Below, in pieces: positions 14,599 to 48,298 of a stretch of 64,000 nucleotides of DNA. Each line of letters begins with the position of its first letter. The stretch's first letter is position 1. A model generated the notes under the pieces. The model had not been told where the DNA came from and searched no databases. It saw only the letters and a program-made list of their open reading frames with translations. A program made the translations under genes and the position numbers. The stretch comes from Candidatus Woesebacteria bacterium RIFCSPHIGHO2_01_FULL_39_23 (lineage in GTDB: Bacteria; Patescibacteriota; Microgenomatia; UBA8517). The DNA is taken from the NCBI GenBank assembly GCA_001792305.1, contig MGGH01000036.1:18599-82598 (forward strand). The letters are read 5' to 3'.

Positions 14599-14890
14599 GC
14601 TCTGGAGGAAGGGCAATCGGGCCGCGGAGCCTCGGCGAAGTGGTCAGGAAAGTCCAGGCAGCTCAAGGCAGGAGACGAGGTGTAAACCTTGACGGGTAAC
14701 CGCTGGTTAGAGCAACAGAGACTACAACTCACCCCTAACCTAAAAGGTTTGGGGAAGAGGGTGAAAAGGGCAATCCCCTCCGCTGCAACCTCCGAATGGG
14801 GCGCTGAAGGTAAGCCTTGCCGAGCCCCGAAGTTTGAGGGCATAGATTGATGGTTGCCGAAAAACAGAACCTGGCTTACTCGCCTCCGGA
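14599..14890 (+). ncRNA. rnpB: RNase P RNA (reduced bacterial type)
   Basis: Universal P4 strands GGAAAGTCCAGGC (14647-14659) and ACAGAACCTGGCTTA (14854-14868), with an A:T covariation at the usual G:C position. AGGGTGAAAAGGGC matches the P10-12 module. P1 pairs GCTCTGGAGG with CCTCCGGAGC. Extended -10 TGgTATAAT at 14584-14592 upstream, and a T-run after the 3' end. GC-rich island in an AT-rich genome. Confidence 0.8.
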
Positions 14891-14898
14891 GCACCAAA

Positions 14899-45232: not shown

Positions 45233-46291
45233 ATGTTTAGTAAAAGACGAGTAGCCATCGCCGCTTTTTTTGTTTTAACGGTAGGATTCGTGTACCTAAA
45301 TCTAAGTGGCAAAGCGCCTGGGATTCAGAATTTTGTTGAGCTTGGTGATCAGGAAAACTTAGGAGGACCTGGGAACGAGCCTCATCCGTTGTCAATTGAG
45401 GCACTTCGTGAGGGTGAATACCCCGGTAGCGATATCGCCATTGAACAGACACTCTCACCTGGGAGCAATTATCAAAGGTATATTGCTTCTTATAAATCAG
45501 AAGGTCTGAAAATTTACGGACTACTGACCGTGCCAAACGGCAGTCCTACGGCAGAATCGGGTTGGCCTGCAATTGTTTTTAATCACGGATATATTTCACC
45601 AAGCGTCTACAAAACGACCGAAAAGTACGTTATCTATCAGGATGCTTTTGCACGAGCAGGTTATGTGACATTTAAATCCGATTTTCGAGGCCATGGAAAC
45701 TCGGAAGGTACCGCCACTGGTGGCTACGGGACAAATGACTATACAATAGACGTTTTAAATGCGGTCTCGACAATTAAAAAATATTCCCAAGTTGATCCAA
45801 ACCGAATTGGAATGTGGGGACATTCGATGGGGGGGCACATAACGCTTGAGGCAATGGTGGTTGGTCGCGACATTAAAGCGGGTGTAATTTGGGCAGGGGT
45901 AACCGGTTCCTACAGTGACTTATTTGAACGGTGGAGAAGAAGTCCAATCCCCGGAAACACAAGCTTGACTCGCCAACGAGGTAGGTGGAGGCAAGAATTA
46001 TCAAGTAAGTATGGCACACCTGAGCAAAACCCAGATTTTTGGGAAGCCCTTTCTGCAACAAGTTATTTATCCGATATTTCAGGGCCATTACAGCTTCACC
46101 ATGGCGCAGCCGACTCCTCTGTGCCTATAGAGTTTTCCCAAAATCTAGAGTCACAATTAAAAGAAGCCGGGAAAGATGTGGAACTTTTTGTTTATAACGG
46201 TGATGATCATAACCTTTCAAAAAATTTATCCTTAGCGCTGACGAGATCAGTTGATTTTTTTGACAAACATCTTAAAGAAGGAGGTGAGTAA
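45233..46291 (+). CDS. Alpha/beta hydrolase (S9 prolyl oligopeptidase / dienelactone hydrolase-like), secreted or anchored
   Basis: Nucleophile elbow GMWGHSMGG. Downstream Asp and His (GDDHN). Confidence 0.75.
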   Translation: MFSKRRVAIAAFFVLTVGFVYLNLSGKAPGIQNFVELGDQENLGGPGNEPHPLSIEALREGEYPGSDIAIEQTLSPGSNYQRYIASYKSEGLKIYGLLTVPNGSPTAESGWPAIVFNHGYISPSVYKTTEKYVIYQDAFARAGYVTFKSDFRGHGNSEGTATGGYGTNDYTIDVLNAVSTIKKYSQVDPNRIGMWGHSMGGHITLEAMVVGRDIKAGVIWAGVTGSYSDLFERWRRSPIPGNTSLTRQRGRWRQELSSKYGTPEQNPDFWEALSATSYLSDISGPLQLHHGAADSSVPIEFSQNLESQLKEAGKDVELFVYNGDDHNLSKNLSLALTRSVDFFDKHLKEGGE

Positions 46292-46292
46292 G

Positions 46293-46880
46293 ATGGAAGA
46301 ATCTAACGAAGTTAGTGAGAAGGAAATTAAGAAAAGCATCAATCCAATATTTATTATTGGAGCAGTCTTAACCACGTTAGTGGCGTTGTTGGTTGTAGCA
46401 AATATAAGTTTACAGAAGACTGATGTTGCTTCCGTGGCAGGAGTAAAAGATGAAGCAAACGGGTTAAGTCAAGATTTGTCTGATAATGATTTAACTGTGA
46501 AAGTTGTGAATGTCGATGCGGGTAGTTTTTATTATAGCAGAACCCAAGAAAACCGTGAGCTCTCAGCTCACGAATGAATTGAATTCTGATATGTCATCCT
46601 CCTTTAGAGGAAACCCCGCTTTTCAAAGCGGGGAGGATGTCATAAACCAAATGAAATCAGGGTCAAAAAAGGCGAAAAAGTTAAAGTTGTTATGAAATCG
46701 GTTGATATGATGCATGATTTTGTAATCGATGAACTTGGTGTCCGCACAAGAATTGCACAAGCAGGAGAGATGGCAGAGGTAGAATTTGGTGTAAATAAAA
46801 CTGGAGAGCTCGAATTTTACTGTAGTATAGGCAACCATCGGGATATGGGTATGGTTGGCACGCTTATTATTGAAGAGTAG
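46293..46880 (+). pseudogene. Cupredoxin-like (pfam13473-type) membrane-anchored copper protein, interrupted
   Basis: TM N-terminus, then a beta-strand ...TVKVVNVDAGSFYYS, and after the insertion in the same frame KPNEIRVKKGEKVKVVMKSVDMMHDFVIDELG...EFYCSIGNHRDMGMVGTLIIEE (Cys/His/Met copper site). The reading frame is broken by stop codons at 46575, 46587 and 46608. Confidence 0.6.
46539..46643 (+). other. 105-nt in-frame insertion with nested hairpins inside the cupredoxin gene (MITE-like or RNA-structured element)
   Basis: Hairpin CGTGAGCT-CTC-AGCTCACG (46554-46572). Outer inverted repeat TATGTCATCCTCC (46590-46602) with GGAGGATGTCATA (46632-46644), enclosing CCCCGC-TTTTCAAA-GCGGGG. Flanked by imperfect direct repeats AACCCAAGAAAAC and AACCAAATGAAATC. 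Confidence 0.5.
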
Positions 46881-46894
46881 TTGTGTTGAATTTA

Positions 46895-47080
46895 TTGACA
46901 GGTTTTAACACCTTTTATATAATTGTCCCAATGTTTTGGCATTTTGGAATTACTAAAAACCAGTACAACCTCGCCGTCTGCGGGGCAATCTTTGCTGGTT
47001 TGAAGCAATTCGAAATCATAATCTAGCTAGAACAAACGATACTTTTTGCAAAACCAGCTAAAGAACGGCTGGTTTTTTTT
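46895..47080 (+). promoter_or_regulatory. Sigma70 consensus promoter, about 150-nt structured leader and intrinsic terminator upstream of the MFS transporter (candidate riboswitch/attenuator)
   Basis: TTGACA (46895-46900), 17 nt, TATAAT (46918-46923). Terminator AACCAGC-TAAAGAACG-GCTGGTT plus T8 (47052-47080), with RBS GGAG and the ATG 8-16 nt later. Terminator arms are duplicated upstream (AAAACCAG 46956-46963; GCTGGTTT 46994-47001), which allows mutually exclusive folds. Confidence 0.5.
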
Positions 47081-47095
47081 GTAGGAGTCAAAATT

Positions 47096-48298
47096 ATGGA
47101 TAGATTTATGAGTAAACTAAAAATGAACGTGAATAGCACGATTTCGCGCTACTACGCTTTTGTCTTTTTTAAAGACTTGGCGTTTTTCTCTGCCGTCTTA
47201 GTACCCTTTTTTACCGATTGGGGAGGAATTAATCTAACCCAAGTACAAATCTTACAATCATGGTTTATGTTTTGGATGTTTATCCTGGAAATTCCAACCG
47301 GAGCAGTGGCAGACTTCGTAGGAAGAAAACACTCGCTGGCACTTGGTGCTTTGGTCGTGGCAGTTGCAGCTTTGGTTTACGGAAGCCTGCCGAACTTTGG
47401 AGTTTTTTTATTGGGAGAATTTTTATTCGCCACTGCAATGGCTATGATGTCCGGGGCAGACGAGGCTCTTTTGTACGATTCTTTGAAGGAAGTGGGCAGG
47501 GAAGACGAGAGTAGAAAATTTTTTGGGAGAGCGAATTCTATACGTCTTACAGGCATGCTTTTGGCTGCACCTATCGGTTCGTTCATTGCTTCCAGAATAG
47601 GTTTGAATATGCCGATGGTTTTGTCAGCTATTCCATATTTATTAGCTAGCGTTATAGCCTGGAGCATTAGAGAACCCGGGATACGTGTCAAAAATTCTGA
47701 ATCCATAAGATATCTGATAATTGTGAGGGAAGGGATCAAGAGTCTTAAAGAGAACAAGAAACTGAAATTGTTAGCTATAGACGCAATAGTTGTTTCGTCT
47801 GCTGCAAATTTCATTATTTGGCTATACCAGCCTTTCTTAAAACTCGTCGGCATACCTATTTTATACTTCGGTGTTGTTCACGCCATGTTGGTTTTGTCTG
47901 AAATTATTGTTTCGAGTAACTTTGAAAGGTTAACTAAGATATTAAAAGGGGATAAGCAATACTTGAGATTTTCGGCAGCTGTTGTTGCTTTTTCATTTTT
48001 TTTAGTTGCCCTGTTTCCCAACGCCTTATCGGTTTTTGCTTTTGTGATAATTGGCGGAGGTGTTGGTTTAACAAGGCTTAATTTTATGTCGGCCATTATG
48101 AATAAATATATAGACTCGAAAAACCGGGCGACTATTCTATCTTCCATATCTATGTTCAGGAGATTTGCTCTGGTATTTTTAAACCCGATTATGGGTTTTA
48201 TTGCTGACAGATCTTTAGTGGTTGCATCATTTTCAGTGGGATTACTGGCACTCGGTATTTTTTTATTTTCCCCGCTTAGAAAAGAGGCTCTGGATTAA
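47096..48298 (+). CDS. MFS transporter
   Basis: 12 TM helices. MFS motif A-like GRKHSL in the loop between TM2 and TM3. Confidence 0.8.
   Translation: MDRFMSKLKMNVNSTISRYYAFVFFKDLAFFSAVLVPFFTDWGGINLTQVQILQSWFMFWMFILEIPTGAVADFVGRKHSLALGALVVAVAALVYGSLPNFGVFLLGEFLFATAMAMMSGADEALLYDSLKEVGREDESRKFFGRANSIRLTGMLLAAPIGSFIASRIGLNMPMVLSAIPYLLASVIAWSIREPGIRVKNSESIRYLIIVREGIKSLKENKKLKLLAIDAIVVSSAANFIIWLYQPFLKLVGIPILYFGVVHAMLVLSEIIVSSNFERLTKILKGDKQYLRFSAAVVAFSFFLVALFPNALSVFAFVIIGGGVGLTRLNFMSAIMNKYIDSKNRATILSSISMFRRFALVFLNPIMGFIADRSLVVASFSVGLLALGIFLFSPLRKEALD

Follow-up and report, generated by a model that had tools for sequence, protein, structure and literature searches.

A conserved leader of Patescibacteria transporter genes as a probable ribosome-dependent transcription attenuator with a putatively leaderless upstream ORF

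A 64,000-nucleotide (nt) stretch from Candidatus Woesebacteria bacterium RIFCSPHIGHO2_01_FULL_39_23 (assembly GCA_001792305.1, contig MGGH01000036.1, positions 18,599 to 82,598 of the forward strand; hereafter the window) carries a gene for a major facilitator superfamily (MFS) transporter behind a consensus promoter and a folded leader that ends in an intrinsic terminator. What decides whether transcription stops at this terminator or reaches the transporter gene? An original prediction, made from the letters of the window, had described the leader as a candidate riboswitch or attenuator. The attenuator half of this proposal is supported by helices that covary among homologous leaders; the riboswitch half is not, as the leader matches no Rfam family and contains a conserved open reading frame (ORF) that looks translated. 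Our proposal is ribosome-dependent transcription attenuation of the trp or whiB7 type, in which a leader ORF would be translated from a leaderless mRNA; we give this reading a probability of roughly 0.65. The parts of the locus, all on the plus strand, are the following.

46895-46900 and 46918-46923, plus strand: sigma-70-type promoter, -35 box TTGACA and -10 box TATAAT separated by a 17-nt spacer
46931-47026, plus strand: putatively leaderless upstream ORF of 31 codons plus a TAG stop (47024-47026), MFWHFGITKNQYNLAVCGAIFAGLKQFEIII, with its ATG 7 nt after the -10 box and no Shine-Dalgarno sequence
46932-46954, plus strand: 5' strand of the outer helix P0, which in minimum-free-energy folds pairs with 47004-47034 and lengthens the long hairpin nearly to the 5' AUG
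46957-46965, plus strand: segment 1, the 5' strand of helix P1 (AAACCAGUA), which forms the anti-antiterminator with segment 2
46969-46985, plus strand: P2, an apical hairpin (CCUCGC-CGUCU-GCGGGG), the part that the original prediction took for an aptamer
46993-47008, plus strand: segment 2, the 3' strand of P1 (UGCUGGUUU) with the extension GCAA at 47005-47008, which pairs with segment 1 or with segment 3
47046-47058, plus strand: segment 3, UUGC plus AAAACCAGC, shared by the terminator, as its 5' arm, and the antiterminator, as its 3' strand
47050-47058 and 47068-47076, plus strand: stem of the intrinsic terminator (called over 47050-47076 with 10 pairs and a loop of 7), whose 3' end overlaps eight consecutive T at 47073-47080
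47084-47087 and 47096-48298, plus strand: GGAG ribosome-binding site and the regulated gene, an MFS transporter ORF of 400 amino acids (PF07690 MFS_1, E = 1.5e-21)

The promoter matches the consensus at 12 of 12 positions and is the single perfect site within 46000-48000, where promoter-like sites as a class are not enriched (3 found, 4.6 expected). At the other end of the leader, the terminator is followed at once by the GGAG and the ATG of the MFS gene. Both of its arms recur upstream, AAAACCAG (47050) with a second copy at 46956 and GCTGGTTT (47068) with one at 46994. The motif CCAGC-N-GCTGG occurs only once in the window, which argues that the terminator is not a generic repeat. Folding of the transcript from 46930 to 47098 gave -48.8 kcal/mol against -33.6 ± 3.5 kcal/mol for shuffled sequences (z = -4.35), a value that none of 200 shuffles equalled. 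Promoter, terminator and duplicated arms thus lie where the original prediction had placed them, while its description of the leader as free of ORFs was mistaken, since the ATG at 46931 opens the 31-codon frame listed above.

We searched for the leader upstream of related MFS genes in 161 loci sampled from genome and metagenome scans and 9 more added by exact-protein look-up. The MFS homologues come from assemblies of Patescibacteria (the candidate phyla radiation, CPR), mostly of Microgenomates type (Roizman-, Woese- and Shapirobacteria). With the leader of the window as query, nhmmer retrieved a homologous leader from a Roizmanbacteria locus (L030; E = 8e-5) whose MFS protein is merely 50% identical, and many further MFS upstream regions, read directly, share the same leader architecture. 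A covariance model built from 24 leaders (R1) matched 29 distinct loci, with one copy in each and always directly 5' of the MFS gene; in the window it has exactly one match, at 46931-47079 (83.5 bits). Searches of the window and of the flanks of about 170 loci gave no extra copies near other genes. Marginal matches at 23-25 bits (L013/L096/L099, L134 and L115) were left out of all counts; the first three have no 5' ATG at the start of the model. Among the orthologues that are at least 60% identical and have enough upstream sequence, 11 of 12 carry the element. The leader is therefore kept upstream of orthologous MFS genes, the conservation to which the original prediction had tied its case.

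Two observations belong to this sampling. In L091 the attenuator and its terminator lie at 1233-1357, about 145 nt before the called MFS start (1501), a distance that is usually 15-25 nt. A miscalled start could account for this, or an additional leader segment. Some assemblies whose MFS orthologues are of CPR type bear the labels Gammaproteobacteria, Pseudomonadales, Clostridia or Bathyarchaeia (L001, L002, L003, L008, L010, L018 and others), and L001, L002, L008, L010 and L018 among them also carry the element. Assemblies so labelled are probably mislabelled or misbinned metagenome-assembled genomes with untrustworthy taxon names.

To assess the helices, base pairs were counted on a model-based alignment of 30 distinct sequences (A3), which was fitted to P1, P2 and the terminator and left the antiterminator extension and the reading frame outside the fit. 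RNAalifold on the raw MAFFT alignment had recovered P2 and the terminator only, because P1 is misaligned by 1 nt in some rows, and P1 was therefore specified by hand for R1. In A3 the terminator helix is 95% paired (30 distinct leaders). P2 has 93% of its cells paired and compensatory changes at every pair, and both its loop and its stem vary in sequence among homologues. For P1 (columns 35-41 with 73-79), where some rows are off by 1 nt, 69% of cells are paired and 6 of the 7 pairs have changed on both sides. Taken together, 16 of the 21 pairs of these three helices show double changes, and none of 500 shuffles reached the observed values. Outer pairings resembling P0 were recognised by eye in some homologues, among them L001, L002 and L082.

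The antiterminator is a pairing to which R1 was not fitted. We compared segment 2, taken as the P1 3' strand and 6 further nt, with the 5' arm of the terminator and its upstream extension, and found 79.7% of cells paired, against 24-47% when the partner was slid by 1-3 columns. Both sides had changed in 39 cells, and on four of five measures none of 500 shuffles reached the observed value. The extension covaries (UUUCG/CGAAA, UUUUG/CAAAA), with the pairs given for L095 as GGTCGTCTG / CAGACGACC and GGUCGUCUG/CAGACGACC and those for L008 as GGTTATCTTGGC / GCCAAGATAACC and GGUUAUCUUGGC/GCCAAGAUAACC, and this covariation persists where the sequence of the terminator stem differs (L005, L095, L068). 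When segment 1 of the window was masked, the antiterminator (46994-47001 with 47051-47058, plus GCAA with UUGC) was the minimum-free-energy fold before segment 4 is transcribed. Terminator, antiterminator and anti-antiterminator are thus all conserved, covarying and mutually exclusive. This supports the switching logic of the original prediction, in which GCTGGTTT at 46994 has two alternative partners, AAAACCAG at 46956 and the terminator's 5' arm: each of the two pairings is conserved and covaries in some 29 leaders.

Exclusive, covarying helices in a strongly folded leader (z as above) would also be expected of a novel transcriptional OFF riboswitch, in which a ligand stabilises the P1/P2 hairpin and so frees the 5' arm of the terminator, the ORF being incidental. 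That the regulated gene encodes a transporter agrees with this, and so does a loosely conserved UUGU or UUAU that ends the 3' internal loop just before GCUGG. The pattern of conservation is nevertheless the reverse of a riboswitch, since the start ATG, the helix arms and the terminator are the most conserved parts, and the expression platform is more conserved than the supposed aptamer. There are no invariant unpaired nucleotides of the kind that a ligand pocket would show; the invariant columns are the ATG, one G of segment 2 and the terminator. The segment of about 30 nt that was proposed as an aptamer turns out to be a hairpin whose stem covaries freely and whose loop and flanking linkers vary in both sequence and length. 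A cmscan against Rfam 15 returned nothing meaningful for the leader of the window at E <= 10, and only tRNAs at the gathering threshold for 20 whole homologous loci; a scan of the entire window at that threshold gave no known family for the leader either. The original prediction had likewise seen no resemblance to the fluoride, preQ1 or guanidine motifs. A riboswitch would also leave unexplained the 5' ATG of all 29 leaders, the stop-free frame and the frame-specific position of the stop described below, and we regard it as unlikely.

The same helices can be read as a binding site. The arms AACCAGC and GCUGGUUU are unusually conserved across lineages whose MFS proteins are merely about 50% identical, as would befit a sequence-specific site, and a protein or RNA acting in trans might bind the CCAGC...GCUGG hairpins and pick the fold, as PyrR, TRAP or LicT-type regulators do. 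Several members, e.g. L008, L022/23, L005/87 and L095, have nevertheless changed these arms in a compensated manner. No candidate regulator is conserved beside the locus, the neighbouring genes differing between loci, and a trans-acting factor would not account for the conserved ORF and its stop. We consider such antitermination very improbable.

All 29 leaders open with an ATG. In 24 of them a -10 box matching in 5 or more of its 6 positions ends 6-8 nt before this codon, and a -35 box TTGACA or TTGACT is present in several. From the equivalent ATG, an ORF of 23-33 codons is found in all 29 leaders. On 26 dereplicated leaders, on which frames and spacings were counted, the span of the ORF contains no stop triplet in the frame of the ATG and 38 and 53 in the other two frames, in which only 5 and 2 leaders are free of stops; in shuffled sequence the mean probability of staying open is 0.196. 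The distance from the ATG to segment 1 is 24, 27, 30, 33 or 36 nt, a multiple of three in 26 of 26. Beyond segment 2, the frame meets its first stop codon at a place where 20-31 nt separate the end of this codon from the terminator stem; this holds for 25 of 26 leaders (mean 25, standard deviation 4), while the other frames have a stop in that position in 3 and 2 leaders. The distance between segment 2 and the terminator ranges from 28 to 52 nt, and the stop moves along with it (r = 0.84; 0.93 without L001). Seven of the 26 leaders change frame between segments 1 and 2 and end right after segment 2 (...CUG GUU UCG UAA); with the exception of L001 and L008, these have shorter spacers. The ORF covers P0, P1, P2 and segment 2.

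A non-coding RNA has no reason to keep one frame open or to fix the place of its stop, and we read the upstream ORF as probably translated. The arrangement leaves no space for a 5' untranslated region or a Shine-Dalgarno sequence and is thus that of a leaderless mRNA; from the sequence we infer that the ORF starts leaderless, at the predicted transcription start. Two independent sets of genes suggest that these organisms are able to translate such mRNAs. Of 60 orthologous loci that have no attenuator, 32 place the MFS start codon itself 5-8 nt after a TATAAT-like box, most of them with a perfect TATAAT and a spacing of 6 nt. The window also has about 13 long ORFs whose start codons follow a TATAAT-like box at 6-8 nt, with hardly any open frame upstream, against 4 such cases at internal in-frame starts. 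These two sets favour TATAAT-N6-8-ATG as a probable leaderless start in this lineage, and the second suggests that leaderless mRNAs are common in the source genome.

The MFS loci of this leaderless appearance without the attenuator include L007, L012, L016, L019, L021, L024, L027, L077, L107, L112, L116-L119, L131-L133, L135, L138, L139 and L145, among others. Examples of the ORF starts in the window are 9988, 22374, 35464 and 42120 on the plus strand and 59583, 45122, 26939, 20010, 17644 and 16289 on the minus strand. The attenuator-bearing and the leaderless-MFS arrangements may be evolutionary alternatives on the same promoter.

If the ORF is translated, is its product what matters? The frame is conserved and open in every leader, and within the closest clade the peptides look alike (MF[RG]NC.IM..PA.LVKNEVNCAGFV), as expected if they were functional micropeptides, e.g. 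partners of the MFS protein, with the hairpin and terminator setting a fixed ratio of short to long transcripts and no switching. Across the family, however, the sequence of the peptide is not conserved: the recurrent P-A, L-V and A-G-F residues follow the RNA motifs CCAGC, CUCGU and GCUGGUUU, and the seven leaders mentioned change frame before segment 2. The amino-acid composition resembles that of random sequence, the excess of third-position and synonymous changes is weak, and a covarying antiterminator would have no explanation. A functional micropeptide is thus a highly improbable account, and the selected feature seems to be the act of translation and its end point, not the peptide product.

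Two kinds of signal within the peptide were considered. Cysteine alone looks enriched: it makes up 4.8% of leader-peptide residues and 0.5% of the window proteome, an apparent tenfold excess that would point to a cysteine-sensing attenuator; TGY is equally frequent in all three frames (34, 30 and 29, with about 25 expected from base composition), so the excess is compositional and this candidate was rejected. Inspection of the 26 dereplicated peptides, with no formal motif scan, revealed no common arrest motif (e.g. R/K-x-R/K).

These observations together describe a short ORF before an intrinsic terminator, overlapping segment 1 of a set of mutually exclusive helices, which is the constitution of a leader-peptide attenuator. 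We propose that it would work as follows. Transcription would start at the ATG at 46931 or 1 nt before it. The RNA could fold into the long hairpin P0/P1/P2 (segments 1:2), which would leave the terminator (3:4) free; alternatively, segment 2 could pair with the 5' arm of the terminator (2:3) and block it. The choice would fall to a 70S ribosome that initiates at the 5'-terminal AUG of the 31-codon ORF. With no ribosome, the 1:2 hairpin would form, and the terminator would keep the MFS gene off. A ribosome that passes segment 2 and reaches the stop codon, some 24 nt short of the terminator stem, would hold segment 2 off segment 3, and the gene would again be off. A ribosome stalled or slow on the first 12 codons or so would cover P0 and segment 1, allowing 2:3 pairing, read-through and expression of the MFS gene. 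We infer this direction of the switch by analogy with known attenuators; in a possible kinetic variant, ordinary translation would be the on state and absent translation the off state.

That the ORF extends past segment 2 and has a fixed end suggests a role for the second of these states, translation through to the stop. Given the size of its footprint, a ribosome at a stop 20-31 nt short of the stem would probably be about as near as it can come without covering the 5' arm of the terminator. P2 may serve as a spacing or pause hairpin; a NusG-type TTNTTT pause motif before segment 2 was found in only 4 of 26 leaders, which leaves a NusG-type pause site there unsupported.

Several points weigh against attenuation of this kind. 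The support is comparative throughout, and the shuffle statistics overstate independence because the leader sequences are related. One of the 12 closest orthologues (L165), in which the MFS gene abuts the upstream gene, lacks the element, and so do many more distant MFS orthologues. Conservation of the frame may partly reflect RNA constraint and stop-rich loops, since helices and peptide constrain the same bases. Selection on the peptide itself is weakly supported: of the codon differences in the closest clade, 23% are synonymous, and 15-17% are when the frame is shifted. The conservation of CCAGC/GCUGG is very high, beyond what an attenuator needs; we assume that it stems from the four-way coupling of the segments. 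Finally, no amino acid is enriched in a frame-specific manner in the leader peptides, as regulatory codons would be, and the proposed attenuator therefore fits a subtype that senses translation stress and not one specific for an amino acid.

We asked whether the regulated gene gives a hint of the signal. The nearest NCBIfam models of the MFS protein of the window are efflux pumps (HP1165 family, Tet(40), TetA(P) and the H+ antiporter TIGR00900), all far below their cut-offs, and against solved structures the sole match was FucP, insignificant (E = 0.008) and giving no substrate. The closest family resemblance, a weak one judged on sequence, is to drug:H+ antiporters. The efflux gene mefA presumably belongs to the DHA3 family of drug:H+ antiporters, which we take to be the family of the model TIGR00900 (2A0121) that weakly matches the window protein. 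Because there is no frame-specific codon bias and the transporter most resembles drug:H+ antiporters, we favour, with low confidence and by analogy, general translation stress (ribosome-targeting compounds or starvation) as the sensed signal; this is the weakest step of the proposal. The full proposition, a CPR-specific RNA family whose leaderless upstream ORF would sense translation stress or ribosome-targeting compounds and switch on a drug-type MFS exporter, is accordingly tentative, and we place it somewhat below even odds.

How does the element compare with attenuators already described? With E. coli trpL-type leaders it shares the four segments, the 1:2, 2:3 and 3:4 pairings, a short ORF over segment 1 and a terminator directly before the gene. 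In trpL the leader ORF stops between segments 1 and 2, while here it crosses segment 2 and stops about 24 nt before the terminator; it also lacks a Shine-Dalgarno sequence, lies at the predicted 5' end of the transcript, has no run of regulatory codons, and precedes a transporter gene rather than a biosynthetic operon.

Leaderless leader peptides are known from Deinococcus deserti (PMC4007540), and leaderless polycysteine short-ORF attenuators from mycobacteria (bioRxiv 10.1101/834739). As here, a 5'-terminal AUG follows directly on the -10 box, and the short ORF is proposed or shown to attenuate the downstream gene. Unlike here, where no such frame-specific enrichment was seen, those peptides are rich in the cognate amino acid, and their targets are tRNA-synthetase or amino-acid genes; the present element has a CPR bacterium as its host and no sequence homology to them. 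The upstream ORF of whiB7, which varies in sequence between species, reports general translation stress and controls drug-resistance functions (PMC10274678), offers a parallel for a variable upstream ORF whose efficient translation leads to a rho-independent terminator and whose stalling leads to an antiterminator, as we propose here. It is alanine-rich, forms part of a long leader whose transcription begins at a distal start, and targets a transcription factor (PMC10274678), whereas the present element would be leaderless and control a transporter directly. MefAL, before the mefA MFS pump, and MsrDL are ribosome-mediated attenuators before resistance functions (PMC10314930), so that ribosome-mediated transcription attenuation before an MFS efflux gene, predicted here, has a precedent. 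Those peptides and the Erm-type ones have 6-14 residues and drug-arrest motifs (+x+, MYLIFM), as opposed to the 23-33 codons of the putatively leaderless ORFs found here. The element belongs to no described RNA family. Its mechanism is not new in kind, since leaderless leader peptides are known in Deinococcus and mycobacteria; what is new is the RNA family, the CPR host, the transporter target and the tight coupling between stop codon and terminator.

Two further features of the window were noted. Just upstream of the locus, a cupredoxin-like gene (46251-46880) is split by a 105-nt insert at about 46542-46646. Its N-terminal (...AGSFYYS) and C-terminal (PNEIRVKKGEKVKVV...HDFVIDELG..., Pfam Copper-bind) parts share a frame, and the insert, which folds strongly (-44.6 kcal/mol), contains three in-frame stops and two hairpins resembling minus-strand terminators. 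It is identical in a relative at 99% (L081) and has no other copy in the window or among the loci. A small mobile or intervening element is one possibility, the scar of a pseudogene another. Elsewhere, at 14601-14894 on the plus strand, an RNase P RNA of class A spans all 367 model positions in 294 nt (110 bits, cut-off 100) and is thus shortened.

For the Patescibacteria, whose cell-cycle regulation was called virtually unknown in a 2024 perspective (PMC11665869), our literature search found no earlier description of such an element, and, judged by title and abstract, none of the papers listed on Patescibacteria and riboswitches appears to describe a native cis-regulatory RNA. The family offers a conserved regulatory unit in which the start codon, the position of the stop and three covarying helices are all open to mutation. 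For annotation, it advises looking for a 5'-terminal AUG and a stop-free frame in any "riboswitch-like" leader of such genomes before an aptamer is called. If our reading is true, the family would be indirect sequence evidence for wide leaderless translation and for transcription-translation coupling in Microgenomates, and the fixed spacing of about 24 nt between stop and terminator would report the footprint of the ribosome. In these ultrasmall bacteria, a transporter would then be controlled by sensing the state of the ribosomes.

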